A stretch of DNA of 64,000 nt from Candidatus Hydrogenedentota bacterium (GTDB taxonomy: Bacteria; Hydrogenedentota; Hydrogenedentia; Hydrogenedentales; SLHB01), in the NCBI GenBank assembly GCA_963745075.1, contig CAVUWV010000010.1, positions 1-64,000 of the forward strand. Direction: 5' to 3'. The translations under genes were made by a program, and so were the position numbers. The notes under the pieces were generated by a model. The model did not search any database. It worked only from the letters and a program-made list of their open reading frames with translations, and had not been told where the DNA came from. Position 1 is the stretch's first letter, and every line of letters begins with the position of its first letter. Shown here piece by piece: positions 24,626 to 48,962 of the stretch.

Positions 24626-26869
<2,244 letters not shown>

Positions 26870-26995
26870 TCAATTGGATGTAACGTTCGCGAGTGCCACC
26901 GCTTTATCGCGCCTTGAATGCAAAGCTACGGATGCGCCGCCATCAGTTGCCTGAATACTCAGCCTTCCGATCTCGCAGCACCGCTCTATCGATGT

Positions 26996-27485: not shown

Positions 27486-27668
27486 TTATGACATTGGCCG
27501 AGCGTTTGGTGGATTCGGGACTTACTATCCACTGGTTGGCACCCGAGAAGACGCACGGATTCCTTGCTGTGGAATTCTCGCGCGTTCTCTGCCTCCAAGA
27601 AGGATAAATGGTTCGAACGGGAAATTCACAAACATCTGGGATGAATGGAGTTGTGGCATAGCAACATG

Positions 27669-27690
27669 GGTGGAGGCGGCGGGAATCGAA
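27669..27690 (-). repeat. att-like copy of the tmRNA 3' end
   Basis: GGTGGAGGCGGCGGGAATCGAA, 22/22 identical to 47122-47143. Confidence 0.9.
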
Positions 27691-28333
27691 ACGCAAGGAA
27701 TTGAAAAAAAGGACTTACAACCGACGGACAAAACCCGTCAAATACCGGTCAGGAACCGGTTAACATCGGACAGAATCTTGCCTTACTTCCCAGCGCCGAT
27801 TGCAATCACCCGTCGATCATCGGACACGCCGAGGTCATCGGCGGACAAAGTTTCGCCCCCAAATCGCCCCCAAGAATTCCCCCCGATTTGCAGCTTCTCG
27901 TCGACCGTTGGGAAGCGCTCCCGCAAGGCATCCGCGCGGTCATAAAAGCGATTCTGAACACCGATGCGGAGTTAGAGGCAAGTAATAGTATTCCGTGATT
28001 GAACACGCAGGACCCACGATGTTGACGTTTGTCTGGAAGTGAATCCTTGCCCGTTTCAGGGGGGCAGGTCAGGTACAAATCTGAAAAAGGGGAGCTTCTG
28101 AATGGGATATCTCCGATACGCTTGTGGGCGCCAAAGTTTTGATTGGACCATGGCGCAAGGAGTACAAGGGAATCCGGCCTCACCGCGCCTTCGCATTTTA
28201 GTCTAGAATGACCGCCAGTGCATCGGCGTCTCGTGGTTGAACCGAGGGGCGTCGGACGAATGGCGGATAGGGGAACTGGGGACGCGCCCGTTCTTGCGGG
28301 CGCTCAAGAAGTCACACATACAGGAGCGGCAAG

Positions 28334-29266
28334 ATGATGAGACGACTTTGTCTTCTAGTGATGATTCTACTTATAGGCCTAAGCGGGACGTTCCTCACTG
28401 GGTCCAGGCAAGCGCTTGCGGAAGACACACCCGCAGACGGGAAGACCTTGCACATCATCGTGTTCGGGGCGCACCCCGATGATTGCGAACTGAAGGCCGG
28501 AGGCGTGGCGGCTCAATGGGCCGCCCTTGGACACAAGGTCAAGTTCGTGTCCGTCACCAATGGCGACATAGGGCACTTCGAGACGGCGGGGGGACCGCTG
28601 GCGCAGCGGCGAGCAAAAGAAGTTGCCGAAGCGGCCAGGATACTCGGCATCGAGACGGAAGTCCTGGACCATCACGACGGGGAATTGATGCCGACCCTGG
28701 ATATACGTAAGGAACTCATCCGGCTGGTCCGGGAATGGAAGGCCGACCTCGTAATCAGCCCCCGGCCTAACGACTACCATCCGGACCATCGGTACACGGC
28801 GATCCTTGTCCAAGATGGGGCTTACATGGTCACGGTGCCTTTCATGTGCCCGGACGTGGAGCCACTGCGGAAGAACCCGGTGTATATGTACATGTGGGAC
28901 CACTTTCAAAAGCCGAACCCGTTTCAGCCGGACGTGGTGGTGGCCATTGACGACGTGATCGAGCGCAAACTTGAAGCGTTGAGTGTGATTACTTCCCAGT
29001 TCGCGGAGTGGGGTCCCTGGCACGGCCACTACCTGGACGATGTCCCGAAAGACCCTGCGGCAGCGAAGGAATGGATAGCCGATGGCTTTCGCAAGCGGAT
29101 GAAGGAACCGGCACAGCGGTATCCGGAAGAATTAACGAAATGGTACGGTGCCGAGAAGGCCGATACGGTGGAGTTCGCCGAGGCCTTCGAGGTCTGCGAA
29201 TACGGACGTCAACCTGACGAGGAAGAGTTGCGCACACTCTTTCCGTTCTTCCCTGCCAAGAAGTAG
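28334..29266 (+). CDS. PIG-L family deacetylase, secreted
   Basis: 'FGAHPDDCE', 'VTNGDIG', 'YHPDHR', 'AEAF'. Confidence 0.88.
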   Translation: MMRRLCLLVMILLIGLSGTFLTGSRQALAEDTPADGKTLHIIVFGAHPDDCELKAGGVAAQWAALGHKVKFVSVTNGDIGHFETAGGPLAQRRAKEVAEAARILGIETEVLDHHDGELMPTLDIRKELIRLVREWKADLVISPRPNDYHPDHRYTAILVQDGAYMVTVPFMCPDVEPLRKNPVYMYMWDHFQKPNPFQPDVVVAIDDVIERKLEALSVITSQFAEWGPWHGHYLDDVPKDPAAAKEWIADGFRKRMKEPAQRYPEELTKWYGAEKADTVEFAEAFEVCEYGRQPDEEELRTLFPFFPAKK

Positions 29267-29337
29267 GAACGCTGCCCGATCGCCGCCTGTGGGTTCGCTC
29301 CCTGGCGTCGCAACGAAACGAAGGACAAGGAGAAAGA

Positions 29338-30682
29338 TTGATGAGCCAGTGTATTTCACACCGATCGTTCACTGCCATTTGGAGCAGGGCAGTGCCGTTT
29401 CTGATTGTGCTGACCGGGTCACTACTAGCGTTCCAGACGCCCGCTTCAGGAGAGGTGCGCGCAGGCGCCGCCCAAATCGACATCACACCGCCGGCGGGCA
29501 CGCCTTCGGCGGGCTACGGCGACCGGATGGGACAGGGGATGGAAGGCGTCCATGATCCGCTATTGGCTACGGCCCTTGTGCTCGACAACGGCGAGAAGAT
29601 GATTGCCTTTGTCGGCGTCGACCACCTTGGTTTCGGAGAAGCCATGGTGGGCGCCGTTGAACAGGGGGTCCACGCCAACCCCGCCACGGCCGCATGCGAG
29701 GTCTATCTCGGTTCGTCGCACACCCATTCAGGCGGTGGCGCCTATTTTGACATTCCGGGTCTCGGTGCGCGCCTCGCCGGCGAGTTCGACAGCGCGATTT
29801 ACCAGTCGTACATCGACGGGGCCGTGCGCTCCGTGGTCGAGGCAGCGGAAAAACTGGAACCGGCAAAGGCGGGCGTCGGCTATGGCCACGCGCCCAATAT
29901 GAATTCGTATCGAGGCGACTGGCCGCCAAATGTTGAAACGCCGCGACGAAGTGGCGGTGCTCAAAGTAACCCGGGCGGACGGCGCGCCCCTAGCCGTGCT
30001 ATTCAATTTCGCGGCCCATCCCACCGTCCTGAGCGGACAAAACATGCTTTTCTCCGCTGACTATCCCGGTGCGGCACGCAGCCAACTTGTCGATGCTATT
30101 GGGGGAGGGGTGCAGCCCATCTTCTTCAACGGCGCCCAGGGGGACGTTTCGCCGCGGCCGCCAAGCGGGGAGGACGGCTTCGAGCGGTGCGACCGTATGG
30201 GCAATGTCCTGGCCGAGGAAGTCAAGCGGGTCTGGGACGCCACGGAAACGTCGGACTCCCTTACGATCGAAACCGAGCGCCATCCTTATGACGTTCGTCC
30301 CCAGCCCACAACGTCCGGTTTCTCCAAGCCGGGCGGCGACTCGCAGATGAGCGAAGTAAGCGCAATCGTCCTCAACGACCGCGACGCGTTCATCACGATC
30401 CCCGGCGAGCTGAGCTGCATCTACGATGCCGACATCAAGCGCTTCGGCCGTTGGCTCGGCTTCAACCAAGTCTCGATTCTCGGCCTGACCAACAGCGCCC
30501 ACGGCTACATCATCACGCCGGAATCCTGGCGCCATCGCATCTACGAGTCGACCTTGTCCTTTGGCGGCGAGCAGTATGGCGAGCGAATCGAGAACATGGC
30601 GTACGCGCTGCTCCACAACGTCGAACCGGAAGGCGCCTATCACGCCGACCAATTGGCCGAATCTACGGTACTTTCGCCATAG
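29338..30682 (+). CDS. Neutral/alkaline ceramidase-like amidohydrolase, frameshift near 29940
   Basis: 'DITPP', 'HDPLLATALVL', 'SHTHSG', then in ORF 29930-30682 'NFAAHPT', 'SADYPG', 'NGAQGDV', 'IPGE'. Confidence 0.8.
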
Positions 30683-30765
30683 AGAGATAGATGAATTTCG
30701 CGCAATGGATGGGCAGGCCCGTGGTCTGCTTGAATACCAGGCGCTTTTACATAGGAGGAAGGCCC

Positions 30766-32253
30766 ATGGTGAAACTTGCGGCAGGAATTCCGATGGTCGG
30801 TACGTGTGTGTTATTGAGTGCAATTGCGGCTTACCCGGTTGTGGCTTGGGCCTCCGAAATGAAGGCGGGGGTTGCGAAGACCGTCATCACACCCGACGAG
30901 CCATTGGTTATCACGAACGGTCCAGTGGCAACCGGCAAGCTCGCAGACCTTTATGCCCGTGCGTTGGTATTGAATGACGGAAACGGGCGCCTTGTCATCA
31001 TTACCTACGACTTGAATTGCCTGGACCGGGCGACGGCTCCGCTGCGACAGCGGGTTCGCGACGAACTTGGCATCGAACCCGCTCGCTTAATCTTGCTTGC
31101 CACCCATAACCACAACGGGCCAATTCAAATCAATCCGGACAATTTCGAGTACGGTGACCGGCTGGCAGACCGATTATTTGACTTGGTCCAAGAGGCAATT
31201 GCGAACGAACAGGGCCCGGTGCACCTTCAATTTGGTTCGGGGTATGCCTATAACCTCATGAGCCGCGGCAATGCACCGGTCGATTACGAAATCCAAGTGC
31301 TGAAAGTCGTGGCCGGTGACCGGCCTGTGGCCTTGCTGTTCAATCAGGCCACGCATCCGCTTCAGGCGTCCAGGTCGAAGTATGAAGCCGGGCATCCTGG
31401 TTTTGCCATGGATGCGATCGAAGCAAAGATGCCCGGCGTCCAGGCGATGTATGCGGACGCGTGTGGCGGCAATCAATTCCCGTTGCGGCCGAAAGCAGCC
31501 GAGGGAGTGCCGGATATGCCGCGGGGCGCGAACGTATCCGACGAAGTCGCTGAGAAAGTGGCAAGAGCGTACGCAGATGAATTGGTAGAAACCGTACTCC
31601 GAATCGCCAATGGCCCAATGGAGGATGTTACTGGACCAATTACGAGCAAGCGCGAGGTCATTTCACTTCCGCTGGCGCCCCCCATCCCCAAGGAAGAGGC
31701 GCTGGCGTTGGCCAAGCAGTTCCCGCCGGACGTGGGCTTCGTCCATTATCCCAACGACGATGGCTACCGGGAAACAAACTGGGTACGGATGCTGCTCTAT
31801 TGGTACGACAAGGGGTTACCCTTTCCGACCTCGACCACCGACTTGGTATGCACCGATGACACATTCCTAATTCACAAATCAGACAAGGAAATGTTGGAGA
31901 AATACCACGACAGTCTCCCCGACGAATTCCAATGTGTTTACGAGGAGGTTATCGTTTCCAAAATCGGTCCGATGGCGTTCGTCGCCATGCAAGGCGAAGT
32001 GTGCGCGCCAATCGGGGCCCGAATCAAAGACGCATTCCGCCGGGACATGCCAATCATGGTGTTCGGCTATATGGGGGAACACAATCTATACATTCCAACG
32101 CGCGAGTTGGTTCGCCAAAAGGCCTACCAAGGGATCGTGATCCAGATTCAGTACGCATCGCCAGTGGGCTGGGCGCCGGAAGTCGAGGATGAGATGGTCG
32201 ACAACGTGTGCAGCGTCGTGAAGTCCGTCATGGCAAAGCCGGTGACCAACTGA
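30766..32253 (+). CDS. Neutral/alkaline ceramidase-like protein
   Basis: 'ITPDEP', 'LYARALVL', 'ATHNHNGP', 'ATHP', 'GCGGNQ'-like 'ACGGNQ', 'QGEV'; RBS AGGAGG. Confidence 0.75.
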   Translation: MVKLAAGIPMVGTCVLLSAIAAYPVVAWASEMKAGVAKTVITPDEPLVITNGPVATGKLADLYARALVLNDGNGRLVIITYDLNCLDRATAPLRQRVRDELGIEPARLILLATHNHNGPIQINPDNFEYGDRLADRLFDLVQEAIANEQGPVHLQFGSGYAYNLMSRGNAPVDYEIQVLKVVAGDRPVALLFNQATHPLQASRSKYEAGHPGFAMDAIEAKMPGVQAMYADACGGNQFPLRPKAAEGVPDMPRGANVSDEVAEKVARAYADELVETVLRIANGPMEDVTGPITSKREVISLPLAPPIPKEEALALAKQFPPDVGFVHYPNDDGYRETNWVRMLLYWYDKGLPFPTSTTDLVCTDDTFLIHKSDKEMLEKYHDSLPDEFQCVYEEVIVSKIGPMAFVAMQGEVCAPIGARIKDAFRRDMPIMVFGYMGEHNLYIPTRELVRQKAYQGIVIQIQYASPVGWAPEVEDEMVDNVCSVVKSVMAKPVTN

Positions 32254-32642
32254 CCGGGGCGAGATGAAGTCGCGGGCCTTTACGGTTGTTAAGTGGACCA
32301 AATCCGTCCCAGTTCGCATTTCTCACCGCCCGAGAGTCCTCGAGTTGAGGATCACGCCGTGGCGTGATGAGAAATGCTTTCGAGAAAAACTGCCACGCCC
32401 CGGGCGTGGTTGAGGGAATCTCACACGCGCGCGGTAAACCCAACATGCTCGGACCGACGTGTGAAGGCTCGGGCCGGATTGGGGTTACAGGCCCGATACT
32501 TGGAGCGTGTGAGATTTCCGGGCTTGCGGAAATCCATCTTCGGGGCACATCCTAGATACTTCTCCGCCCCCAAACTGGAAGAACGGCTCAGATAGGAAGC
32601 GCTTAAACCTCTGGGATGAATTGAGTTGTGGCGGAGAAATAA

Positions 32643-32665
32643 TGGTGGAGGCGGCGGGAATCGAA
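32643..32665 (-). repeat. att-like copy of the tmRNA 3' end
   Basis: TGGTGGAGGCGGCGGGAATCGAA, 23/23 identical to 47121-47143; the preceding TAA is also shared. Confidence 0.92.
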
Positions 32666-32858
32666 GCCGAAGAAGGGGTGTTTTGGCAACTTATTGAAAA
32701 GCAAGAAGATACGACTTAAGACTATGCTGCAGAAGAACTTCGGTGAGTCTCAGGTTTTATCAGAACTTGTCATCCCTGCGCAGGTTTTTGTTTGAAAATG
32801 CTCCCGTGGAGATGTGCCCTTCAAGAGGTCTCGTCATCACATTGCCATTCGCGGCGCA

Positions 32859-33644
32859 TCACAGCAAACGGCCCTTGAGGCTCCTCAGCAGTTCAAACCC
32901 TGCGATGAGGCTTTCACCACCGGTGCATCGGGCCAGGCGTGAATAAGACATGGCCACATTCTTGACTCGTGCGTTTGGGAAGTCGGTGCTCTGACACACA
33001 TCCTTGTGAAGGCCCGTATCCTTGTCCAACCAGACAACGATCAACTCTGGGGCCTGCTGTCCATGCCGGAAAAGCTTCTTGTATGCGCTGTTCTCCGACA
33101 GCGTTGCTTCCAGCCAGCTTCCGTCTTCAAGGACAAAGTCGGGATTGTAGAGCCGGTGCGTTCTCAGCTTGAGCCCATTTTTCCCGGCGAAGTCTACATA
33201 CCAAGGATCGGGGTCCCGATGCTCGAATACAGGTTCACGCCGACAGGGTATTTCGAGCAGCATCAGAGCCTCGGCGATAAGGTGCGAGAAGATCCTCCCG
33301 CGCGCGCCGGTGCGCTGAAATGAATTCAAGTCTTGCATGCGACGCTCTTGAAATGCCGCGATGATCGGTTCCCACTTGCGGCGCGCCCTTCGTGACAGAG
33401 GTGAAGCATATCCATCCGGAGTGCGCAATACACCACACCTTTCGTGTTCACTACAAAACAAAACGTAAGCACGGTTCGAGACGCCAATGATGTCGTGATC
33501 GAACAATGCAAACCCGTGCAGGCACGTCTTAATATACCATTCCCCATGCCGTTGGTCATTTCCCCTTGATGTCGTGTGCGGACCGGCCTGGAAACCCGCT
33601 ATGATCCTGGCAAAGCTGACTGAGGCGGCGGCATGTTCGGACAT
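32859..33644 (-). CDS. Hypothetical protein, possible PD-(D/E)xK nuclease
   Basis: 'YNPDFVLEDGSWLEAT' resembles a PD...E motif. Confidence 0.45.
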   Translation of the reverse strand: MSEHAAASVSFARIIAGFQAGPHTTSRGNDQRHGEWYIKTCLHGFALFDHDIIGVSNRAYVLFCSEHERCGVLRTPDGYASPLSRRARRKWEPIIAAFQERRMQDLNSFQRTGARGRIFSHLIAEALMLLEIPCRREPVFEHRDPDPWYVDFAGKNGLKLRTHRLYNPDFVLEDGSWLEATLSENSAYKKLFRHGQQAPELIVVWLDKDTGLHKDVCQSTDFPNARVKNVAMSYSRLARCTGGESLIAGFELLRSLKGRLL

Positions 33645-33667
33645 GCGGGAAGGATGAATCAGACGAC

Positions 33668-35017
33668 ATGAGCAAACAGCGCAAGAAGGATCCGATAATG
33701 GCGAGCATCGAACGAGCGCTCGACTTCGGCCAGTTCGTATCCTACAAACAAACGTGGGATTTCGTCAGCAACCTGGACCGGATCAAGGATCAGATTGACG
33801 CGCTCGTTGACGAGGGTGACGCGGAACGAACGGTCAGACTCTACGAACTATTCCTTGCGGGTGTATACGAGAAGGCCGAGGAAACCGACGATTCGGGCGG
33901 CGAACTCGGAGCGTTCTTCGAGAGGCTGTTTGTATCTTGGATCATCGCCCGGCAAAAGACCGGATGCGCGGCTGAAGAGACTGTGCTCGAGATCCTCGGC
34001 TGGATAGAGAACGATAACTATGGCTTTTGCCATGGAATCGAAGGGGAGGTGGCGCGAACGCTCAACAGAGAGGGGTTTGCCCTATTCAGAAGCCACTTCC
34101 GGAATCTGTTCGAGAAGGCCTTCGCACCTTTCAAGTGCGAGGCGCCAAGGCGTATCTACGATTATCCCGCTGAGGTGTGCCTGTCCGCCCGTGTGCTCAA
34201 GTCCATCTACATTGCGAAGAGGGATGTGCCCTCCTATGTCGCCCTTTGCGAAATGATGACCGTTTCTCCGAAAGATTGTGAAGAGGTGGGCAACATGCAC
34301 AAGACCAGGCGGCGCTTTGCCGAGGCGCTCGAGTGGGTCGAGCGCGGGCTGTCACTTGAGCATGAACGTCACTGGGGGAATGAGTCTAGCAATTCTCTTG
34401 CCTTCATACGGCGGGAGCTCCTCGAAAAGGTCGGGCGCAAAGAAGAGGCGTTTCAAGTTGCCTGGGAACAGTTCGAAAAACACCCTTGCGAATACGCCTA
34501 CGCGGATCTGATGAAGCACGTGGCCGGGGAAGATCGGGAGCATTGGCACGACAAGGCCATGGAAGCCGCCAAGCGAACTTCGTTGTCTGGGTACATCGAA
34601 ATCTGCGCGAAAACCAAGGAGTGGGATGCCTTGGTGCGCCACGTCGATTCCGTCACACGGGAGGAACTCGAAAGCGTGAGCCACTATGTGACAGAAAAGG
34701 CGGCCAAGGGGCTTGAAAGGCGCCACGCGTTGGCGGCCGCCAAGGTGTATGCCGCCCTCGGCATGCGGATTGTCAAGGAGGGCAAGAGCAAGTATTATCA
34801 ATATGCCCTCGGCCACCTCCGGAACGCGAAGAAGTTCGCGGAAAGGGCCGGCCATACCGAAATGTGGTCATCGTTGATAGAAGAAGTGCGCAAGAATCAC
34901 TCGCGAAAACAAGGTTTCATTCCGGGTTTCGAGGAAATCGCGGCGGGACGGCGGCCGGCTTCCGACTCCTTCGAGAAGAGAGCGAGGAAACGGTGGAAGA
35001 AACAGGTGTCGCAATAG
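33668..35017 (+). CDS. Helical/TPR-like conserved hypothetical protein (DUF6880-like)
   Basis: 'DDSGGELG', 'SKYYQYALGHL', 'HSRKQGF'. Confidence 0.65.
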   Translation: MSKQRKKDPIMASIERALDFGQFVSYKQTWDFVSNLDRIKDQIDALVDEGDAERTVRLYELFLAGVYEKAEETDDSGGELGAFFERLFVSWIIARQKTGCAAEETVLEILGWIENDNYGFCHGIEGEVARTLNREGFALFRSHFRNLFEKAFAPFKCEAPRRIYDYPAEVCLSARVLKSIYIAKRDVPSYVALCEMMTVSPKDCEEVGNMHKTRRRFAEALEWVERGLSLEHERHWGNESSNSLAFIRRELLEKVGRKEEAFQVAWEQFEKHPCEYAYADLMKHVAGEDREHWHDKAMEAAKRTSLSGYIEICAKTKEWDALVRHVDSVTREELESVSHYVTEKAAKGLERRHALAAAKVYAALGMRIVKEGKSKYYQYALGHLRNAKKFAERAGHTEMWSSLIEEVRKNHSRKQGFIPGFEEIAAGRRPASDSFEKRARKRWKKQVSQ

Positions 35018-35080
35018 CGCCGGGCTCGACGCGGGAAAGGCGGAAATGAACGTGCCTCCTAACGTTCAGAAGGAAGAGGG

Positions 35081-36298
35081 ATGAAGCGACCACATCAATG
35101 GCAGTTTCGGGCACGCTTCAGAACAAACGCCTATACCTGGCGTGGCACGGCCCTTGCCTCGAAACGCTTGAAGGAAGCCGTCGTGGAGATCACGAATGCG
35201 TCCAAGTCCGACCCTGTGGCCGCCGGGGACGGTTGCGTTGCGCTCATGGAGCGCCTATGGCCCGCGCTTCAAAGCATCGATAGTTCCTCCGGCGCGCTCG
35301 GGAACGCTGTCAACCGGACCCTCCACGACCTGATCCCCATTCTGATCGCCGCCCCCTGCGGCCGGGAGCTTCGCGCAGAATGGATCGAGCGCTTGTATCA
35401 GGCCGTCTGCGACGACGGCGTGCAGTACTTGACACCGGTGGAAGAACGCTGGGGGGAGGTGTGCGTCTTCCCCGAACTCGCCAATGAATGGGCCGAGAGG
35501 ATTCTCCCGCTGCTTCGCGAAGTATGGTCCGCCCGCCGTCCGGGCGCTCACGTGCGCGGCGACACGCTGTGCCTCTCGTGTCTTCTGGAGACCGGGCGCT
35601 ACGTGGAATTGGGCGAAGTGCTCTCGCTGCGCGGCGTTCGTTTCTGGCCGAACGATCAGTTCTTGGCGGAAGCAATGGCACGTGAAGGAAGAATCGACGA
35701 GGCTGTCGCGTACGCCGAAGCCCATCACGACGAACACTACGAGCGTCCCGGGATTATCGCGTTCTGCGAGCGGATTCTTCTGGAATCCGGCCGAGAGGAG
35801 GAGGCCTACCGGAAATTCGGCCTGTTCGCCGTCAACGCAACAACGCATCTGAGCGCGTTCCGGAAGACCGCCGCACAGTATCCCGAAAAGGACCGCCGCC
35901 AAGTCTTGCTGGACCTGATTGAGGCGCGCGGGAACAAGGGGAAGTGGTTCGCCGCCGCGAAAGACGCCGGATTCCTGGACATTGCCCTCGAATGCGCCCA
36001 AACAGGCGACACGGAACCGAAAACGCTGATCCGGGCCGCGCGGGATTTCGAGGAAACGGAGCCTGAATTCGCAGTGAACGTCGCACTCTGTGCGGTTCAA
36101 ATCCTGCTGCGCGGCGGGGGCTATGAACCATCGGCGGTGGACATACAAGAGGCATACGACTACCTGATAGCCGCGGCAAGGCGGTTGGGGCGCGCGGAGT
36201 GGGCGAGAACCGGGTTGGAACACCTGTTGTCCGACACGGAGCAGAACATCGAGCCGCAAATGAAGAAGGTGCTGGAGATGCGCCTTTGCCTGGGCTAG
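35081..36298 (+). CDS. Conserved hypothetical helical protein
   Basis: 'WQFRARFR', 'IDSSSGALGNAV', 'GKWFAAAKDAG'. Confidence 0.7.
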   Translation: MKRPHQWQFRARFRTNAYTWRGTALASKRLKEAVVEITNASKSDPVAAGDGCVALMERLWPALQSIDSSSGALGNAVNRTLHDLIPILIAAPCGRELRAEWIERLYQAVCDDGVQYLTPVEERWGEVCVFPELANEWAERILPLLREVWSARRPGAHVRGDTLCLSCLLETGRYVELGEVLSLRGVRFWPNDQFLAEAMAREGRIDEAVAYAEAHHDEHYERPGIIAFCERILLESGREEEAYRKFGLFAVNATTHLSAFRKTAAQYPEKDRRQVLLDLIEARGNKGKWFAAAKDAGFLDIALECAQTGDTEPKTLIRAARDFEETEPEFAVNVALCAVQILLRGGGYEPSAVDIQEAYDYLIAAARRLGRAEWARTGLEHLLSDTEQNIEPQMKKVLEMRLCLG

Positions 36299-36702
36299 CT
36301 GTTCGCTTCCCAGACTGTGTACTCTCTCACGGGCCAGTAGTTCTTGTCCTCCTTGGGCGTCACTTCCAGATCGGCCAGCGGGACAACGCCTCTTGCCCTC
36401 CTTTCTCGAACGCTTACGAGAATGCCGAATCGCGATAGGTCGTCATCCATGAGATCGACGACATCCATCGCATGACCAAGTCTGAATGGATCTCTGTCTG
36501 CAACGTCAGTGAAGTAGGCATCATCATCGTCTTCCACGCGCGTGGCCTTGAAAGGAAAGGAGAGATTCTCCCGAAGCCATGCCTTCCAATCGCGGCAGGC
36601 CCATTCTTCGCATTTCAAGTCAAAGGCGTCTTCGCTCCGCGGATGGCACCCGGTATCATCCTCCATCAGATCCCAGGAGTCATCGTAGGGGTTCTCTATC
36701 AT
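36295..36702 (-). CDS. CcbP-like ('calcium-binding') SH3-fold protein
   Basis: 'LSFPFKA', 'VPLADLE', 'REYTVW'; RBS GGAGG. Confidence 0.6.
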   Translation of the reverse strand: MIENPYDDSWDLMEDDTGCHPRSEDAFDLKCEEWACRDWKAWLRENLSFPFKATRVEDDDDAYFTDVADRDPFRLGHAMDVVDLMDDDLSRFGILVSVRERRARGVVPLADLEVTPKEDKNYWPVREYTVWEANS

Positions 36703-36753
36703 AACTATTTCCTCCGAATTTTCGCAGTGCCCAGCCCGAAGCACTGCGCCGCG

Positions 36754-37686: not shown

Positions 37687-37689
37687 GTT

Positions 37690-38370: not shown

Positions 38371-38381
38371 GTTCCCCTCCA

Positions 38382-38630
38382 CTATTTCAAGTCTGCAAAT
38401 TCCTCGCGTGCAAGCAAGACCCGGATGCTGCGCGGCTGTCCGGGAATCCGCCCAATGAATCCGTTCTTCTCCAGCGTCACCACCATCTGATGCACACTCG
38501 GCGCGCTAACGTTGAAATACCGTTGCATGTCGGCTTCTGCCGGCGGCCGGCCAGTCACTTTGGTATAGTAGTGGATAAAGGCCAGATACTGGCCCTGTTT
38601 CTCGGTGGGTTTGGATTCCATTCCCTTCAC
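38382..38630 (-). CDS. LexA/MarR-like winged-helix DNA-binding protein
   Basis: 'TEKQGQYLAFI..RPPAEADMQRYF..PSVHQMVVTLE..PGQPRSI'. Confidence 0.8.
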   Translation of the reverse strand: MKGMESKPTEKQGQYLAFIHYYTKVTGRPPAEADMQRYFNVSAPSVHQMVVTLEKNGFIGRIPGQPRSIRVLLAREEFADLK

Positions 38631-38692
38631 ACTCCCTTATTCATCTCTCGGGCGCATCGTAGATCGACAGGAATCTCATGGAACTACTCGGA

Positions 38693-39997
38693 CTACTCCG
38701 GCATGTTGAGCAGGAACCGCCATGCCGGCACGACCTCGATGGTTCCGCCCTCAACGTCGAACTGTTCCTCCTTATTGCGGGTCACGATTGTCCCTGACCC
38801 GACGCCCAATTCCGCCATCGCTTCGCTCAAAGCAACGGTCTCTCTGTTTCGTGTCTGCGGCTCGGCGAGCGACTCGCACACCTGTACCAGGAGCGGGGAA
38901 CGGCCACGCGATGGGACGATGAAATCGACCTCCTTGCCGGTCTTCGTCCCATAGTAGTAGATGTCTGGTTGGCTGCGCCGAAGCGCCGTGAATACAAGGT
39001 TCTTCAGAAGATGCCCGGAGTTGATGAGCACGCCCGACGATACCGAAGTGACCATGGCGTGATCGATGCAATATACCTTCTTCGGGTTCGTGTTGCGGCG
39101 GGCGAGCGAGGCGTCGAATATCTGCACGGTGAACAGGAAGTAGGCGTCCTCGAACCACTCCAGGAAATCCGATACGGCCGTCCTTGGCGCATGATGCCCC
39201 AGTGATTGTAGATATCCGGTTAAGCGGTTGATGGAATAGACTGATGCCGTGTTGTCCACCAGCCAATGAGCCAGATCGCTCACCGCTTTCGGGTGCGCAA
39301 TGTCGTGACGCTCCACAAGGTCACGAAACAGAACTGCCTGGAAGTATTCTTGGTGCGTTTTAATCCTCAAGTTCTCACTGAGGCCGATGACCTCGGGAAA
39401 ACCACCGGTTGCCCAATATTCCTCAAAGGCCTTCTGGATGAGAAGCCGCTTCTTCGTTGACAGACCTCCCTCGCTGTCCATTCCTCGGCTGTCAAGAAAC
39501 TCACGGAAGGAGAACGGAAACAACTCCCAAGACAACGCTCGCCCGCGCATCTGCGTAGCGATCTCTTTCGACAGCATTCTGGTCGAGGATCCCGTGAGAT
39601 AGACCTCGCATTTCTCCGTGCGAATCATGCGATCGACAAAAGGTTCCCAACCCGGAACGGCTTGTATCTCGTCGAAAAAACAGTAAACCGTTTCTTCACC
39701 CTTCTTTTCCGGGTAGATGGAGTAATAGGATTCGGCGATCAGAGCTAGATTCTCATGCTGCAGATTGTGGAGGCGGTCGTCGAAGAAGTTCAGATACAGA
39801 ATATTCTGTCGCGAAACCTCGCTGTCCATCAGCCCCTGAATAAGCTGGAACAGGAAGGTGGACTTCCCGCTCCGGCGCACGCCGATACAAACGGTGGCTT
39901 TCCCATGAACCGGCTCTACATGCAAACGGCGGGGCACCCCCGTTTCCAATTGGGCCTCCTGAAAGTCCAGGATGATGCTCTTTATCGTCTCCATCAT
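38693..39997 (-). CDS. AAA_14 ATPase with a DUF4143 (nuclease-like) C-terminus
   Basis: GVRRSGKS, FDEIQ, TGSS, GGFPE, 'KVYCID', 'EVDFI..QVC'. Confidence 0.88.
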   Translation of the reverse strand: MMETIKSIILDFQEAQLETGVPRRLHVEPVHGKATVCIGVRRSGKSTFLFQLIQGLMDSEVSRQNILYLNFFDDRLHNLQHENLALIAESYYSIYPEKKGEETVYCFFDEIQAVPGWEPFVDRMIRTEKCEVYLTGSSTRMLSKEIATQMRGRALSWELFPFSFREFLDSRGMDSEGGLSTKKRLLIQKAFEEYWATGGFPEVIGLSENLRIKTHQEYFQAVLFRDLVERHDIAHPKAVSDLAHWLVDNTASVYSINRLTGYLQSLGHHAPRTAVSDFLEWFEDAYFLFTVQIFDASLARRNTNPKKVYCIDHAMVTSVSSGVLINSGHLLKNLVFTALRRSQPDIYYYGTKTGKEVDFIVPSRGRSPLLVQVCESLAEPQTRNRETVALSEAMAELGVGSGTIVTRNKEEQFDVEGGTIEVVPAWRFLLNMPE

Positions 39998-40575
39998 TTG
40001 ACTAATCCTGTCTCAGAAGTTTCCGATATGGTACCTAACTGCGAGTGAATATGCGCAGTTTACCCTGGCGTTGTCAAGACAGGATGCCGGATTCGACCTC
40101 GCCACGTTCCCCCCGCTACTTGTCGTCTTGCAGTCCTTGTCGCAGGCTTGATCCGAGGCGCAAACAAAGGGACGCGGGAATCAGTACGGATCGCGGTATG
40201 ATCTTGTAGCGAGTGTGAATTCCAGTTCGGCACTCTGCAACGCTTCCGCTTCACTGCCCAAGTGGCGCTCTTTGGCTCCGGCGACGAGACCACGTTGAAA
40301 GACAGAGCGTAAGACTCAGAACGGCAATTGGTTAGAGCGTGCAGGCGCAGAAGTGATAACTGAAAACGGCATCTGGATCATCGGATTCCTCAAGGATAAG
40401 GATAGTGATCGACGGCATGCTTACGCATGCTCACCTCGCACATGCGCGGCAGTCAACACCTAGAAATGCTCCCATTTTGGTCCCGCCACGGAAATGGCGT
40501 ATCAATGGGATGTGCAACGACCGCATTTTCAGCCAAGGCTGCTTGGGCTTTGTAGACGAATAATAATAGTTAACT

Positions 40576-40863
40576 ATGGTGAAGGCGGCGGGAATCGAAC
40601 CCTCTCTGGAAATCGATACATTTGCTGCACTTTTCCTACAGAACCCATACACAAACCACCCATCGCAAACAGCTTGCGAGGCGCTGATCGACACTTTCCG
40701 TACACTTCCCGAACAGAACCGCGACACTTTCTTGCGGCTCGTTTGTGCAATATATGTGCAATGGAATGCGCTACCGCCCTCAATCCAAAACATGATCAAT
40801 GACTGGACCTTATTGCCAGAGGAGGTCAAGGAACGCGTTGAAAGAATGGTGGAGCGGCAGTAG
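40576..40863 (+). CDS. Small att-initiated ORF with a WxxLP motif
   Basis: 95-aa ORF; its C-terminus resembles the peptide encoded at about 27879-27960. Confidence 0.45.
   Translation: MVKAAGIEPSLEIDTFAALFLQNPYTNHPSQTACEALIDTFRTLPEQNRDTFLRLVCAIYVQWNALPPSIQNMINDWTLLPEEVKERVERMVERQ
40577..40602 (-). repeat. att-like copy of the tmRNA 3' end
   Basis: TGGTGAAGGCGGCGGGAATCGAACCC, 25/26 identical to 47121-47146. Confidence 0.92.
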
Positions 40864-41003
40864 GTGGGGTATTGAATGAGCGAATCCTACCTGCTGAGAA
40901 TGAAGTAAGATGACGAGTTGGTGCATCATTGCCTTGAAAAGAAGCCGGGGATCTGTGTGAGTGCCTCCGCGATGAACTGGGATAGACTGATGGAACGGAA
41001 GAA

Positions 41004-42470
41004 TTGAACACGCGCGAACTCAAGAACCTGGTCGCAGACGGAGAGTCGGAGCGCCTTGAACTGAAGCGCTCCACGGGCCAGAGAACCGAAGCCGCAAAAA
41101 GTGTTTGTGCCATGCTCAATGGCATGGGTGGCTTCGTCGTGTTCGGCGTGACCGACCGGCGAGAAATCGCTGGCCAACAGGTCACAGCGAAAACCCTTGA
41201 AGATATTGCGGCTGAACTGCGTCGGATTGAACCTCCTGCATTTCCCGACATCGAGACGATTACGGTCAAGAAGGATCACGATGTGATTATCTTGAAGGTC
41301 CCAGGCAGCGCGGGACTGTATCACTACGACGGACGTCCCTATGTCCGCCAAGGTCCGACCACGATCGTCATGCCGCGCGAAGAATATGAAAGAAGGCTCG
41401 TGGAACGTCTGCACGCCACACGTCGATGGGAAAATGAACCTGTTGCCGAGGGCGTATCCGTGAAGGACCTCGATAAGCAGGAGATTCAGAACACTCTGGA
41501 CACCGCAATCAGTCTGGGGAGATTGGAGCCCACGGGGCGTCGAGACGTGGAGTCAATTCTTCGTGGATTGGATCTCATCCGCGAAGGCAGACTCCTAAAC
41601 GCGGCCGTTGCCCTCTATGGAAAGAGCAATAGACTCAAAACGCTTTATCCGCAGTTCAGCATAAGGCTTGCCCGTTTTCGTGGCGTGAATCGCCTTGCAG
41701 AATTTTCGGATAACCGGCAGTATTGGGGTCATGCATTCTCGCTCTTGAGCCGGGCTCAGTCTTTTCTCATGGATCACGTACCAATCGCCGGGAGGGTCGT
41801 TTCGGGCAAGATGGTCCGCGAGGATCAGCCGCTCTATCCGCTTCGGGCAACGCGCGAGGCGCTTGCGAACGCTTTCTGCCACCGTGATTACACGGTACCT
41901 GGCGGTGCGGTCGCTGTGGCCATGTACGATGACCACCTCGAGATTACCAACCCTGGCGCGCTTCACTTTGGAATTACCCCTGAGAAGCTGAAAGTGCCCC
42001 ACGAGTCCAAACCGTGGAATCCAATCATCGCGAACGTCTTCTACCGGGCCGGAATTATCGAGCGATGGGGTAGCGGCACGCTCAATATCATCGACTGGTG
42101 CACGGAGAACGGCAATCCCGCGCCGGAATGGCAGGAGCTGGCGGACTCCGTTTTCGTGACATTCCTTCCGGCGGCGCTGCTGGCGAGCCCAGGAAAGGAT
42201 GAGAATAGGGACCAAGTTGGCACCAAGTTGGCACCAAGTAGGCACCAAGTGGCCGTCTTGTATAAGTGCCTCAATAACACTGGTTTATACGAACTGATGA
42301 AGGCTGCTGGACGCACAGACCGCACCAAGTTCAGGAACCAAGTCCTTAAGCCACTCCTTGAAGCCGGACTTGTTGAAATGACGATTCCAGACAAGCCGCG
42401 GAGCAGCAAGCAACAATATCGCTTAACGGACGCCGGGAGGCAATATCTTGCCGACTTGGACAAGGCCTGA
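41004..42470 (+). CDS. AlbA_2 (Schlafen-like) domain + HATPase-like domain + C-terminal HTH protein
   Basis: 'GESERLELK', 'CAMLNGMGG..FGV', 'REALANAFCHRDY', 'ERWGSG', 'PDKPRSSKQQY'. Confidence 0.85.
   Translation: MNTRELKNLVADGESERLELKRSTGQRTEAAKSVCAMLNGMGGFVVFGVTDRREIAGQQVTAKTLEDIAAELRRIEPPAFPDIETITVKKDHDVIILKVPGSAGLYHYDGRPYVRQGPTTIVMPREEYERRLVERLHATRRWENEPVAEGVSVKDLDKQEIQNTLDTAISLGRLEPTGRRDVESILRGLDLIREGRLLNAAVALYGKSNRLKTLYPQFSIRLARFRGVNRLAEFSDNRQYWGHAFSLLSRAQSFLMDHVPIAGRVVSGKMVREDQPLYPLRATREALANAFCHRDYTVPGGAVAVAMYDDHLEITNPGALHFGITPEKLKVPHESKPWNPIIANVFYRAGIIERWGSGTLNIIDWCTENGNPAPEWQELADSVFVTFLPAALLASPGKDENRDQVGTKLAPSRHQVAVLYKCLNNTGLYELMKAAGRTDRTKFRNQVLKPLLEAGLVEMTIPDKPRSSKQQYRLTDAGRQYLADLDKA
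42210..42250 (+). repeat. 11-bp intragenic tandem repeat
   Basis: ACCAAGT at 42211, 42222, 42233 and 42244 (unit GGCACCAAGTT/A). Confidence 0.85.
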
Positions 42471-42565
42471 ATGTGCTTCTCGACCGGCAATTGGTCCAGT
42501 GCGTCGGGAGTAAAATATGGCTTTCCAACATGGCCCCAATGTATTGCAGGCGAACTCGGACTAAC

Positions 42566-45061
42566 ATGTCGCACGATGACGAACGGCTCCGCGAGGACCT
42601 CGCGAAAGCAAAAGAGGAAATCTGCCGACTCCAAGAGGAAAACGGTCGGCTCAAGGCTATCCTGGGCGCATTCTCCGTTAAGTCCGGCAATGCCATAAAG
42701 CTACCAAAGGCCAACGTTCAGCCTGAGCCGAGACCACCGTCAACAAAGCCGCCTACGCCACCGCGCGATTCCCAGATGATGGCTGATCAGCGAATTCAAC
42801 TCTTTCGTGCACTGTTTCGTGGCAGGGATGATGTGTACGCCGTGCGCTGGGAGAATAGGAAGGGGAAATCCGGCTATTCGCCCGCCTGTGCCCACGAGTG
42901 GGACCCGATGATCTGCAAGAAACCCGGAGGCAGGTGCACGGACTGCAGTTATCTTCCGCTCACGGACGATGTCGCTCGCGCCCATCTTCTCGGGCAGAAA
43001 ACCATCGGCATTTATCCCATGCTGAGCGATGAAACGTGCTGGTTCCTTGCCGCCGACTTTGATAAGGAGGGTTGGCAGGAAGACGCTCGAACATACCTGG
43101 CGACGGGCCGGACAATGCATGTGCCGGTGTACCTGGAAAGTTCGCGCTCGGGAAATGGCGCCCATGCATGGATATTCTTCGAGCAAGCCGTGCCCGCGGC
43201 AGCGGCTCGGAAGCTGGGCAGTGCAATTTTGACGGCCTCGATGGAGAAACGTCACCAAGTCGGACTGAATTCTTACGATCGGCTATTTCCAAACCAAGAT
43301 ACGATGCCCAAAGGCGGGTTTGGAAACCTAATTGCAGCCCCACTGCAACGAACACCGAGAGACGACGGCAACTCCGTATTCCTTAACGATGAATTCGAGC
43401 CTCACTCCGACCAATGGAGCTTTCTCGCCGCGGTTAAACGTCTCTCCATCGGTGCACTCAAACGGATTGTCCGAGATGCCGAACAGCGAAACATCATCGT
43501 GGGTGTTCGCCTGCCGATTGTCGATGAAGCACTCGGGGAAGATCCTTGGACACTGCCCCCGTCGCGGAAACGTGCTGAACCTCCAATTCTTGGCCCCTTG
43601 CCGAAGGATTTGACTGTCGTCCGGAGCAATCTACTCTATTTGGAGATGCGTTCACTGAATCCTTCGTTGACCAACCGGGTCATTCGGCTGGCGGCGTTTC
43701 AGAATCCCGAATTCTATGCCGCCCAGGCGATGCGCCTTTCGACGTTTGGAAAGCCACGGGTAATTGGTTGTGCGGAAGAGTTTCCCGACCACATCGGGAT
43801 TCCGCGTGGGTGCCTCGAAGATCTGAAAGACCTTTTTGAGTCGCACGCGGTTGAGTTCAAAATCAAAGACGAGCGCCTGACGGGAACACCTGTGGCGTTC
43901 TCATTCCACGGCCAACTCAGTAGCGAGCAACAGTCTGCGGCCGAGGAGTTGGTTAAACACGATGATGGTGTCCTCGTAGCGCCTCCCGGCTTCGGCAAGA
44001 CCGTGCTGGCGGCATGGATCATCGCGCAAAGAAAGGTGAATACACTCGTTCTTGTACATCGTACGGCGCTCTTGGAGCAATGGCGTGAACAACTCGCCCT
44101 CTTTCTAAACGTTAATAGACAGTCGATCGGAACGATAGGGAGTGGACGGCGCAAAGCTACGGCTCTTCTGGACGTCGCAATGATGCAGACTCTCCAGAGG
44201 AAGGGACAGGTAGCTGATCTCGTGGCTGACTATGGCCTCGTCATTGCAGACGAATGTCACCACCTTTCGGCCTTCACATTCGAGCGCATCATGAGGGAGG
44301 TCAAGGCGAAGTACGTGCTCGGCCTGACGGCAACGCCAATTCGAAAAGACGGGCACCACCCCATCATATTCATGCAATGTGGTCCGATCAGGCATCGCAT
44401 CAGCCCTAAACTTGCCGCGGCGCGTCGGCCATTTCAACATGTGGTCATTCCCCGAGTGACAAGACTGGTCGTAAACAAACCAGAACCCTCGATTCATGAC
44501 GTTTACCACGCTCTCACCCACGACGAGACACGAAATCGCCAAATCATCGACGACATCGCGCGGGCGGTCAATTCGGGGCGCTCGCCGATTGTGCTTACCG
44601 AGCGTGTCGACCATCTCACAACGTTGGGAGCCATGTTACGAACGCGAGCAGTGACGCAGAAGATCCTCATCTTAAGAGGTGGAATGAAGTCCAGTGAACG
44701 GACCGATGCTCAAGAAGCTCTCTCAACAGATAGCGCCAATGAAACTATCGTGATCCTTGCGACGGGGAAATTCATCGGCGAGGGGTTCGATTATTCCCGA
44801 CTCGACACACTTTTTCTCGCCATGCCCATATCATGGCGGGGCACACTGGAACAATACGTTGGCCGTCTACACCGATTGCACGAAAGCAAGCGCGAGGTGC
44901 GGGTGTACGATTACGTGGACAGCAACGTATCGATTCTCACGAGGATGTACGCAAGGCGACTTCGTGGGTATCGGGCGATGGGGTATACCATTCAAACTCA
45001 TGAAGAACAGTTGACGCTTCTGCCCGCGCCCCAAGACTTTCCAGACTTGGAACAGAATTGA
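42566..45061 (+). CDS. AEP-like primase domain (TOTE-type) fused to an SF2 DEAD/ResIII helicase
   Basis: 'LFRGRDDVYA', 'FLAADFD', 'SRSGNGAHAW', 'GFGNLIA'; PGFGKT, DECHH, TATP and QYVGRLHR motifs. Confidence 0.85.
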   Translation: MSHDDERLREDLAKAKEEICRLQEENGRLKAILGAFSVKSGNAIKLPKANVQPEPRPPSTKPPTPPRDSQMMADQRIQLFRALFRGRDDVYAVRWENRKGKSGYSPACAHEWDPMICKKPGGRCTDCSYLPLTDDVARAHLLGQKTIGIYPMLSDETCWFLAADFDKEGWQEDARTYLATGRTMHVPVYLESSRSGNGAHAWIFFEQAVPAAAARKLGSAILTASMEKRHQVGLNSYDRLFPNQDTMPKGGFGNLIAAPLQRTPRDDGNSVFLNDEFEPHSDQWSFLAAVKRLSIGALKRIVRDAEQRNIIVGVRLPIVDEALGEDPWTLPPSRKRAEPPILGPLPKDLTVVRSNLLYLEMRSLNPSLTNRVIRLAAFQNPEFYAAQAMRLSTFGKPRVIGCAEEFPDHIGIPRGCLEDLKDLFESHAVEFKIKDERLTGTPVAFSFHGQLSSEQQSAAEELVKHDDGVLVAPPGFGKTVLAAWIIAQRKVNTLVLVHRTALLEQWREQLALFLNVNRQSIGTIGSGRRKATALLDVAMMQTLQRKGQVADLVADYGLVIADECHHLSAFTFERIMREVKAKYVLGLTATPIRKDGHHPIIFMQCGPIRHRISPKLAAARRPFQHVVIPRVTRLVVNKPEPSIHDVYHALTHDETRNRQIIDDIARAVNSGRSPIVLTERVDHLTTLGAMLRTRAVTQKILILRGGMKSSERTDAQEALSTDSANETIVILATGKFIGEGFDYSRLDTLFLAMPISWRGTLEQYVGRLHRLHESKREVRVYDYVDSNVSILTRMYARRLRGYRAMGYTIQTHEEQLTLLPAPQDFPDLEQN

Positions 45062-45072
45062 GAAAGGGTCGT

Positions 45073-45489
45073 ATGTCCATGAAACACAGAGCCTGGGCTT
45101 GGGGCCCAACAAAACCCTCGAAAGTCCCGGAATCGGTGCGGGTAGATTTGAGTGCGCGGGCGCAGGCGCTAGTGGAGGCGGAACTCAAGCCGCGGCATGT
45201 GAAACCACCATCGATCGATTCCGACCTCAACTACATCGTGGATATTTCGACAAAATGGCGCGGGCGGTTCTTCTACTTTGTTTCAGAATATGCGTGCCCG
45301 GGGCCGAACGCGCTCTCGCCCTATTTTGAGACAGGCTTTGCCCGGCTCGAGTACCAAAGAGATGGCCGTTTCAGCCTGGCATTCATGCGGCACACGGGCC
45401 AATGGTGGCAGGTCTACACGGACTTAACGGTGGACGACGCATTAAACCAGATTCGCGAGGATGCATTTTTTCAACCGTGGGGTGATTGA
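45073..45489 (+). CDS. Hypothetical protein (possibly DUF3024-like)
   Basis: 'FARLEY..FSLAFMRHTGQW'; directly follows the helicase. Confidence 0.6.
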   Translation: MSMKHRAWAWGPTKPSKVPESVRVDLSARAQALVEAELKPRHVKPPSIDSDLNYIVDISTKWRGRFFYFVSEYACPGPNALSPYFETGFARLEYQRDGRFSLAFMRHTGQWWQVYTDLTVDDALNQIREDAFFQPWGD

Positions 45490-45592
45490 ACCGTTAACCA
45501 ATGAAGGCAGAAGAAGCGAAAGGTCCGGGTCCGGCCGGTCCGCCATCGCATCGGAATTCTGATCCCCAGCAAACGCCCGTTAGGCTGGTGTC

Positions 45593-46750
45593 TCAGCCAA
45601 TGAGATTCGCTTTTCGGATTCTGTCCAGAAGGGTAGGCTTTCGTGCCTGCTCGCGATATAGGGCTTCGATGCGTGACGAGAACGTTTTTCGTTGGCCTGT
45701 CATTGCGGCTACTTCATGAAGATCGTGAAGAAGCGAGACCGCCTCGTCGTACCGCTTTGGCTGTTTTGTGGCGACCAGCGCGTCCACCTTGGACCAAAGG
45801 GTATTCTCTTTGCCAATGAGCGATTCGAGGTGCTTCTTGCGTTTTTCGGCCTGCTCTCGTTCGCGCTTGGCGTTCTCTTGCGCCCGCTTTTTAGCCTCCC
45901 TCCGCTGTCTATCGTTGGCAATCGATTCGGCCCGCTCGACAAGCTGCATGACACGACGCCGTTCGTTCTCCTTCACGTTGCGGTCGGACTGTGTGCCGCC
46001 ACGTAACTCGTGTAAAGCGCGCTGCCTTAGCTCATCGCCAACCTGCGAATTCCTATCTTGAAGCAGTGTCACGATCACGTTGTCTTTTTCTTCTGACGGC
46101 AGTTTGGCCACCCATCCGGAAATCTCTGCTCGCGACGAAGTCGAGGTTGACTGCTCTTTACTATGCTCAGCGGCCACTGAGATCAAATCGTCGTCAATAC
46201 GAAGAAAATCCACGAGGCCCCGAAGTGGCGCGCTCAATTCTCCCAACCCGGAAGGCACGGGCGGCTCAGTGGTATCGCCATCCAACTCGCCCGCTTGAAG
46301 GGCCAGCAGCCATCCGAGGTAGAGGCAGCGGTAATCGCCGTGCATGAGGTCTGACCGAAGCGCCGTGAGCGAAGCCAACCACCCCTCCCCGTCTTCCCAC
46401 TCGCCAACTTCATCTTCCGAGTCGAAGAAAAGGATGACGTGTTCGCCCTTCATATGGAACGAAAAACTTTCGCTAGCACAGTATTGTGACACCAATTTGG
46501 GGTCGAGCAGCCGCTTCGGAACACGCAGCATAAACCAGCGGCTTCCCCAATTGGTCACGTAAAGAAAGGCGTCGAAATACTTCTCCATCCATTTGACTGG
46601 GTCGCCCTTGAAGTTGCCCCAGTCGTATTCGTTAACAAAGCTGGTAGGCGTGATCCGCGCACGGGAGGAATATGATCGCAACTCATCCATCTGCGCACGA
46701 GTCAGGGGGCGGTCTAATGCCTGGAACTCATAGTACTGGTACTCGCTCAT
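45593..46750 (-). CDS. Conserved hypothetical protein ('MSEYQYYEF' family)
   Basis: 'MSEYQYYEFQALDRPL', 'YFDAFLYVTNWG', 'GDYRCLYLGWL', C-terminal coiled coil. Confidence 0.75.
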   Translation of the reverse strand: MSEYQYYEFQALDRPLTRAQMDELRSYSSRARITPTSFVNEYDWGNFKGDPVKWMEKYFDAFLYVTNWGSRWFMLRVPKRLLDPKLVSQYCASESFSFHMKGEHVILFFDSEDEVGEWEDGEGWLASLTALRSDLMHGDYRCLYLGWLLALQAGELDGDTTEPPVPSGLGELSAPLRGLVDFLRIDDDLISVAAEHSKEQSTSTSSRAEISGWVAKLPSEEKDNVIVTLLQDRNSQVGDELRQRALHELRGGTQSDRNVKENERRRVMQLVERAESIANDRQRREAKKRAQENAKREREQAEKRKKHLESLIGKENTLWSKVDALVATKQPKRYDEAVSLLHDLHEVAAMTGQRKTFSSRIEALYREQARKPTLLDRIRKANLIG

Positions 46751-47120
46751 TGTTGTGATGACTCCGGCGAATTGCACGTTACCGACTTAGTGCTGGGGCG
46801 TCAACGTCCGGTCTGCCGTTTGCTCTTTCCAATGTTGAGGGGCGCATCCTTAGTCCGGCGATGATTCAGTTTATATCAACGGTTCCGTGAGCACGTATCG
46901 GATTTCGCAAAGACACCCATTTCCCCTCGTGGCGGCGGGATTACACACCAACTTAGAAAATGAAGTGTGCAATATGTGTGCAATGGGGTTCGGTGGCACA
47001 ATCCGCTGTCTGTGTAAGTTGTTGGCCAACAACTGCTTCGGGAGTGTGCAAGCCGTTACTGGCGGCGGGGTTAGTCCTGACGCCAAAATCATCGTAAGCA
47101 ATTGCTACTAAATAACTTAA

Positions 47121-47478
47121 TGGTGGAGGCGGCGGGAATCGAACCCGCGTCCGAAAGTGCATCCCTGTGAGTATCTACGTGTGTAGCCCGTCCTTTAGGA
47201 TTCGCCGCCGTAGAGCGCGTCGGGCTCGCTTTCCACGGTCGCTAGGCGGGGTCGATACTCTCCGCCGAAGTCCCCGCCGGACTCCGGCATCGAGGCCCGC
47301 TGTCGTCGCCTTAGCCCCCTAGCAGGCGGTCGGAGGTAAGACGCGCTACCCTAAATTAGGCAGCGAGTGCCAATGGTTCGTTGGCATTTGTTTGGTAATC
47401 GGCTTTTTACGAGGCCGGCCGATTAACCTCGACACGCAACTCACGCTTCTTCACTCCCGTCGAAACCATGTCGCCCCC
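47121..47478 (-). ncRNA. ssrA: tmRNA, tag peptide (A)ANEPLALAA
   Basis: 5' GGGGGCG pairs with 3' CGCCTCC-ACCA including G3-U70; T-loop GGTTCGATTCC; tag ORF 47385-47356; smpB nearby. Confidence 0.97.
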
Positions 47479-48937: not shown

Positions 48938-48962
48938 TTTCCATTTACTACATCTGCGCGCG

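Follow-up and report, generated by a model that had tools for sequence, protein, structure and literature searches.

Integrase-less modules in tandem at the tmRNA gene of an uncultured Hydrogenedentota bacterium

The tmRNA gene and the modules that follow it

The stretch of DNA analysed here, hereafter the window, comprises 64,000 nucleotides of a Candidatus Hydrogenedentota genome (GenBank assembly GCA_963745075.1, contig CAVUWV010000010.1, positions 1 to 64,000) and carries on its reverse strand a gene for transfer-messenger RNA (tmRNA; ssrA) whose 3' end recurs three times in the sequence beyond it. The last 26 nt of ssrA (47121-47146) form the attL core of this array, and the three copies, which are oriented as ssrA and begin at the T loop or just ahead of it, follow at spacings of 6544, 7934 and 4975 bp, delimiting modules of 6.5 kb (module 1), 7.9 kb (module 2) and 5.0 kb (module 3). 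A preliminary description had reported these copies and module sizes, and both are confirmed: the 6.8-Mb assembly (89.7% complete) holds no further core copy with up to three mismatches, the other four core matches in it have four mismatches, three of them lying at tRNA genes, and the chance expectation for a 22-mer with at most one mismatch in 20 kb is about 2e-7. The T loop is one crossover subsite listed for tyrosine integrases in the Islander study (PMC4383910). An Rfam scan of positions 22000-60000 returned the tmRNA only, and smpB (53858-54394), which shares the strand of ssrA, is located some 6.4 kb upstream of it. The layout of the array is as follows.

47121-47478, reverse strand: tmRNA gene (ssrA), tag ANEPLALAA, predicted by ARAGORN and Rfam
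40577-40602, reverse strand: first copy of the ssrA 3' end (25 of 26 nt), junction of modules 1 and 2
32643-32665, reverse strand: second copy (23 of 23 nt), junction of modules 2 and 3
27669-27690, reverse strand: third copy (22 of 22 nt)
27585-27668, reverse strand: degenerate left arm of class C, left over from a fourth element
24626-27433, reverse strand: fur and katG, the chromosomal flank, syntenic in the relatives G003 and G005

Each module contains four to eight open reading frames (ORFs) and is flanked by its own pair of short direct repeats, here termed class A, B or C, which lie at a fixed distance from the core within what we refer to as the left and right arms.

Module 1
46966-47120, reverse strand: left arm, with the class-A site at 46966-46983, 138 nt from the core
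45593-46777, reverse strand: protein without family, about 385-394 aa, of the size and in the place of an integrase but not an integrase, with homologs in modules of G069 and G019
45058-45489, forward strand: DUF3024 protein
42473-45061, forward strand: AEP-TOTE primase domain fused to a superfamily 2 (ResIII/Helicase_C) helicase
41004-42470, forward strand: Schlafen/AlbA_2 and HATPase_c_4 protein with a Fic-like C-terminus
40603-40765, reverse strand: right arm, with the class-A site at 40744-40761, 144 nt from the core

Module 2
40467-40576, reverse strand: left arm, with the class-B site at 40467-40485, 92 nt from the core
38693-39997, reverse strand: AAA_14 and DUF4143 ATPase, best PADLOC match the candidate system PDC-S01 (E 4.6e-103)
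38382-38630, reverse strand: LexA-type helix-turn-helix (HTH) protein
37690-38382, reverse strand: CcbP-like protein
36754-37686, reverse strand: DUF1186 and SEC-C protein
36295-36744, reverse strand: second CcbP-like protein
35081-36298, forward strand: 405-aa protein without family
33668-35017, forward strand: DUF6880 protein
32859-33644, reverse strand: 261-aa protein without family, with only a weak PD-(D/E)XK nuclease lead (score 0.85, rank 27)
32666-32807, reverse strand: right arm, with half a class-B repeat left (32799-32807)

Module 3
32540-32642, reverse strand: left arm, first class-C unit kept (32565-32573) and second lost, matching the 3' tail of the G004 integrase
32311-32530, no strand assigned: dispersed palindromic repeat of the host, similar to repetitive extragenic palindromic (REP) sequences (23 genome BLAST matches, 20 of at least 100 bp)
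30691-32253, forward strand: ceramidase-like protein
29338-30060 and 29930-30682, forward strand: ceramidase-like gene split across two overlapping frames
28334-29266, forward strand: PIG-L deacetylase
27691-27972, reverse strand: right arm, with an intact class-C repeat at 27854-27873, 163 nt from the core

For some of this cargo the family matches offer a lead towards a role in defence, and three proteins (261, 385 and 405 aa) have no family assignment.

Arm repeats and the search for their integrases

The class-A sites of module 1, which lie inwards of the left core by 138 nt and of the right core by 144 nt, recur with the same right distance in G003, G012 and G049, the left distance being 141 nt (G003) or 136 nt (G049); the class-B repeats of module 2, at 92 and about 133 nt, are placed likewise in G018, G019 and both modules of G069; and the class-C repeats of module 3, at 70 and 163 nt, likewise in G004 and in a planctomycete element (L093). 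In the host genome, motifs of all three classes with up to two mismatches are confined to the array. By their position, and from what is generally known of tyrosine integrases, we take them to be putative integrase arm-binding sites. Three different arm-repeat pairs imply three element families accreted at one site, rather than one cassette system.

For two of the classes a candidate cognate integrase can be named in relatives, whose ssrA elements bear PF00589 integrases. G021 has an intact PF00589 tyrosine integrase at ssrA, with a class-B repeat 4 nt ahead of its start codon, and in metagenome contigs class-B repeats flank related integrases at tRNA-Met. The class-C left arm coincides with the 3' tail of the G004 integrase frame, which converges on ssrA: 32540-32642 and 27592-27668 match its extreme 3' end at 62-67% amino acid identity, the tail doubling as the att arm, and the right arm of module 3 is 91% identical to that of G004. 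Judged by these matches, the B and C arms correspond to two distinct tyrosine-integrase families of the relatives. Among 54 family genomes, one contains a close match to the G021-type integrase; a second match, in G009, is 35% identical.

The array itself is devoid of such enzymes, as the preliminary description had maintained for the whole window on the basis of its reading frames. Six-frame searches of the genome yielded four matches to PF00589, none in the window, none to PF00239, and one to PF07508, on another contig. Pfam scans of 34, 20 and 15 window ORFs and 63 short six-frame pieces from the gaps gave no recombinase, relaxase or transposase above the cut-off, the sole recombinase-type row being rve_3 (E=0.048, under the cut-off). 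Custom profiles of two sets of related integrases (46 and 20 sequences), run with --max on six-frame pieces of at least 20 aa, matched nothing in the three modules; they do pick up integrase fragments in two relatives. The intergenic gaps contain no integrase remnant apart from the C-tail that overlaps the arms, and the module ORFs match no relaxase, coupling protein or type IV secretion system family in Pfam or NCBIfam. Across the whole genome, broader profiles recovered only XerC/D-like genes and two island integrases, and the G004-type family (alignment A1) had no match at E 1e-5 or better; as the assembly is 89.7% complete, the lack of a cognate integrase in the genome is not proven.

Several candidates for a missing enzyme were considered and set aside. 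The 394-aa ORF adjoining attL has no Pfam, NCBIfam or custom-profile match, and its Atlas neighbours are unnamed clusters. A serine recombinase as the cognate enzyme is opposed by the PF00239 and PF07508 results given above. The two non-Xer integrases of the genome sit in islands of their own, with different arm repeats, and the confinement of the A, B and C motifs to the array likewise argues against them as helpers:

C14:62362-70952: integrase-bearing island at tRNA-Pro, 8.5 kb, with its own arm repeat
C4, near 14245-15795: integrase-bearing island at tRNA-Met, with its own arm repeat

An integron is an ordered array served by the integrase IntI, with one type of cassette site and small, mostly single-gene cassettes. 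The preliminary description had seen in ssrA an integron-like capture locus, at which a single recombinase, encoded by the host or by an element, adds interchangeable cassettes in trans. What the array has in common with such a locus is its order, the single common core, the mixed defence-like and metabolic cargo and the separate acquisition of units that lack a recombinase of their own. However, three unrelated arm systems are present, two of them pointing to separate integrase families, neither of which was found in the genome; in module 2 and in module 3 alike, one arm repeat is halved; the units hold several genes in 5-8 kb; no IntI adjoins the array, the window being free of PF00589; and neighbouring elements in relatives bear integrases, or fragments, of their own. 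We therefore regard an integron-like origin as very improbable. Of the cassettes postulated there, it stands that they are non-autonomous, separately acquired, polymorphic and laterally moved; that they belong to one cassette system does not.

The locus in relatives, exchange of cargo and decay

The core pattern is found in 44 of 54 family genomes, with at least two matches in 19 and the most, four, in the host genome. In part of these the additional match is another tmRNA gene or a distant match, which was not counted as an array: G052 and G067 have two full tmRNA genes each, and in G005 the second match has two mismatches and lies on another contig. Comparison of the region downstream of ssrA, the check proposed at the outset, shows that occupancy varies among congeners of the host between no insertion, a single module and an integrase-bearing element. 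In G005 the site is empty, ssrA being followed by a long gene, fur and katG; in G003 it holds nothing but a module-1 variant, 87% identical over 40572-44986 and with a different first gene; and G004 has the class-C element with its converging tyrosine integrase.

Arrays of two and three units on single contigs occur in G018, G019 and G069. They bear on the idea that the array is an artefact, in which alternative islands of co-occurring strains were chained by the assembler through the short common core. The incompleteness of the assembly and a best sequencing-run share of 0.14 for the strain leave some room for this, but the left and right arms of each module belong to one class and the decay described below is ordered, so that, of all the explanations weighed here, we give it the least credence.

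Among 14 modules with two cores, from ten genomes (the left core being degenerate in G018, and G035 belonging to another family), one has an intact integrase (G019), two have fragments (G020, G035) and 11 have none. A PF00589 search of ten relatives found only the G019 gene on module contigs, and broken integrases also adjoin ssrA cores in G046 and G008. Pfam searches of 70 ORFs from the relatives' loci detected no serine recombinase, and transposase-type genes in some modules. The case of ordinary decayed islands, which the preliminary description set against its own reading, is partly borne out: the arms can be traced back to elements with an integrase, and integrase fragments persist at ssrA in relatives. 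In the modules no remnant of a catalytic domain was found. The integrase of G019 (L039:11623-12877), of the A1 family, points at the distal core and reads through it, as does, in orientation, that of L117, while the usual layout converges on ssrA. In class-B modules of G018 (L046:7260-11000) and G019 (L039:1830-6770) we also observed a recurring unit of an IS630-like HTH, a ParB-DNA methylase and a radical SAM/spore-photoproduct-lyase-like gene, flanked in G018 by two B repeats, and in G051 a class-B left arm that follows a strongly degenerate ssrA core (L326).

The cargo of the three modules had been called unrelated, which holds within the host genome but not across relatives, where it is drawn from one common pool. 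A mosaic structure is seen in module 2, which follows a module of G069 at the left end and in the ATPase and one of G018 in the right-hand genes, and G069 and G019 hold genes of modules 1 and 2 within single units. Divergence at four-fold sites is 0.13-0.23 in five cargo comparisons and 0.34-0.36 in two DUF1186 comparisons, against 0.44-0.65 in 12 comparisons of chromosomal genes (katG, xerC and xerD), from which we infer that cargo passed between species and genera later than the split of their hosts. Single contigs of two other metagenomes, X4 and X5, contain a G003-like module 1 of about equal length. For the cargo of module 3 five congeners offer no close counterpart, only patches of 71-83% identity, and its 520-aa protein is found in none of the five. 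A second DUF1186 gene of the host genome (C11:172082-172860), split over two frames just downstream of tRNA-Lys, is possibly another decayed islet.

Decay rises with distance from ssrA. Both arms of module 1 match the class-A motif exactly; the right arm of module 2 keeps half a class-B repeat, the outcome expected of a deletion between two B repeats such as those 3.9 kb apart in G018; module 3 has half a class-C repeat in its left arm, whose second unit is lost, a host repeat inside and the split ceramidase-like gene; and beyond it only a bare arm remnant is left. In G003, G004 and G005 the last core is followed by common native sequence and then a long gene (DUF4838 in G003), of which the host genome has no close ortholog (best 38% identity). 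The degenerate C left arm that takes the place of this sequence indicates the decay of a fourth element at this spot and the loss of the native flank. From the state of the arms, module 1 is the likeliest to be still mobilisable, whereas the other two have probably become fixed here. The palindromic repeat in module 3, about 210 bp long and with a folding z of -4.2, also occurs at 57998-58106; it may belong to a family of the REP/RAYT (REP-associated tyrosine transposase) type, and the genome has 16 Y1_Tnp matches, none in the window.

Origin of the array and comparison with known systems

We consider it probable that the locus arose by tandem accretion of three integrase-less islands and the remnant of a fourth, similar to cis-mobilizable elements (CIMEs), with occasional co-excision alongside a visiting cognate element. 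Elements with tyrosine integrases of different families, all using the T-loop/acceptor end of the tmRNA for crossover, would have integrated successively, each regenerating ssrA and shoving older elements outward. The modules retained the att core and the arm repeats of their family and lack integrases, which would have been lost, and the mosaic cargo may reflect recombination between neighbours inside arrays. They would then move only when an autonomous element with a cognate integrase reaches ssrA and excises them, most simply along with itself.

Several results weigh against this account. No integrase-bearing parent was found for class A with its geometry of about 138/144 nt: pattern scans of GTDB gave two loci each, both from genomes already in the comparison set, the metagenome scan gave 0 loci, a phylum-wide BLAST found the right arm in 5 of 135 genomes and the left arm in 1 of 135, the host itself, and A-like repeats were seen only beside the other integrase family, at about 71 nt. 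Nor was an integrase-bearing element with the exact class-B left distance of 92 nt found, that of G021 being 69 nt, so that descent by deletion is directly indicated for class C alone; viral contigs contain no class-B motif. In integrase-less copies the class-B repeats are more conserved than the rest of their arms (left, 4/95 against 90/455, p=4e-5; right, 1/76 against 42/532, p=0.02), which fits continued use better than plain decay. Finally, no excision was observed in the contigs compared, all of them from other strains. The circle joints 47120-40577, 40576-32643 and 32642-27669 were absent among the joints listed in four of 14 metagenome contig sets, in which no contig spans the array, and this is neutral either way. 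A joint of X5 (28058-40572) has a side of 35 nt and was not used as evidence.

The conservation of the repeats underlies a different account, which we judge possible but distinctly the weaker, namely that classes A and B are standing non-autonomous families of mini-islands with arms under selection, which rare helpers with the cognate integrase would regularly excise and re-integrate one at a time, in trans, in the manner of miniature inverted-repeat transposable elements. Integrase-less B modules occur in four genera (the host genome, G018, G019 and twice in G069) with gapless 92/133-nt spacing, conserved repeats against left-arm identities of 64-88%, and common DNA beyond the left repeat without similarity to integrases; the right-arm repeats of class A show excess conservation too (4/72 against 92/576); module 1 recurs without an integrase in G003, X4 and X5; cargo is younger than host divergence; and the B-linked integrase is as rare as noted above. 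If so, and we hold this only tentatively, A and B modules would be long-lived, trans-moved families forming a cross-genus pool for defence-like and carbohydrate-use genes, hidden from island finders that require an integrase. However, cis-mobilisation accounts for this spread as well. The p-values of the conservation tests are overstated, as motif limits were drawn from the same alignments and the genomes are related, and with three motif-found metagenome arms added the right-arm test gives p=0.41, an indel in one arm breaking the gapless comparison. The half repeats of modules 2 and 3 and an IS21 inserted in one class-B right arm (L222/L236) show decay, and the lack of any circle in the contigs of other strains counts here as well.

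Accretion with loss of integrases has close parallels in the CIMEs of streptococci. All cores are present, with arms intact in module 1 and one-sided half repeats in modules 2 and 3; no functional integration genes and no conjugation or mobilisation gene families were found; and of the parents from which CIMEs derive by deletion, an integrase-bearing element matches the C arms and one is flanked by B repeats, with none for class A. The position in tandem at the target gene's 3' end is shared, module sizes lie within the reported 1.2-13 kb (PMC5704250, PMC7563491), and as in streptococcal tandems the most decayed elements are farthest from the target gene (PMC7563491), the short att-only remnant resembling a microCIME. 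In contrast to those tandems, the array retains no integrative and conjugative or integrative and mobilizable element, arms of three families are stacked, the parents may or may not have been conjugative, and the host is an uncultured Hydrogenedentota bacterium.

The principle of tandem integrase-less ssrA islands is already published for Dehalococcoides, where tandem islands bounded by ssrA 3' repeats of about 20 bp include 15 without an integration module that were proposed to be cis-mobilizable (PMC3146451). They differ in their CcrB-like serine recombinase, DsiB, whereas the relatives studied here use tyrosine integrases and arm repeats. The islands of Islander/TIGER likewise consist of a tDNA and a displaced 3' fragment starting at the T loop, and include, among 3919 islands, 125 tandems of two or more and 4 of three or more (PMC4383910, PMC12424338), but an integrase gene is required per island, and the present modules would be filtered out. 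Literature on ssrA islands in the phylum Hydrogenedentota was absent among the matches listed.

The array is a clear case of a tmRNA hotspot gathering cargo after integrase loss, in a phylum for which we found almost no work on mobile elements. With two candidate helper integrases and their arm sites named, mobilisation of integrase-less islands in cis and in trans becomes testable, and, as most delimited ssrA modules in the family (11 of the 14 examined) have no integrase, catalogues that demand one would miss them.

Two further sets of repeats lie in the window outside the array. At 48658-48939 and 51082-51251 there are four copies of a REP-like repeat of 33-37 nt, in inverted pairs round genes for a short-chain dehydrogenase/reductase (SDR) and a glycosyltransferase, and at 22703-24433 a DUF4382/DUF5666 protein contains internal tandem repeats of 252 nt (84 aa).

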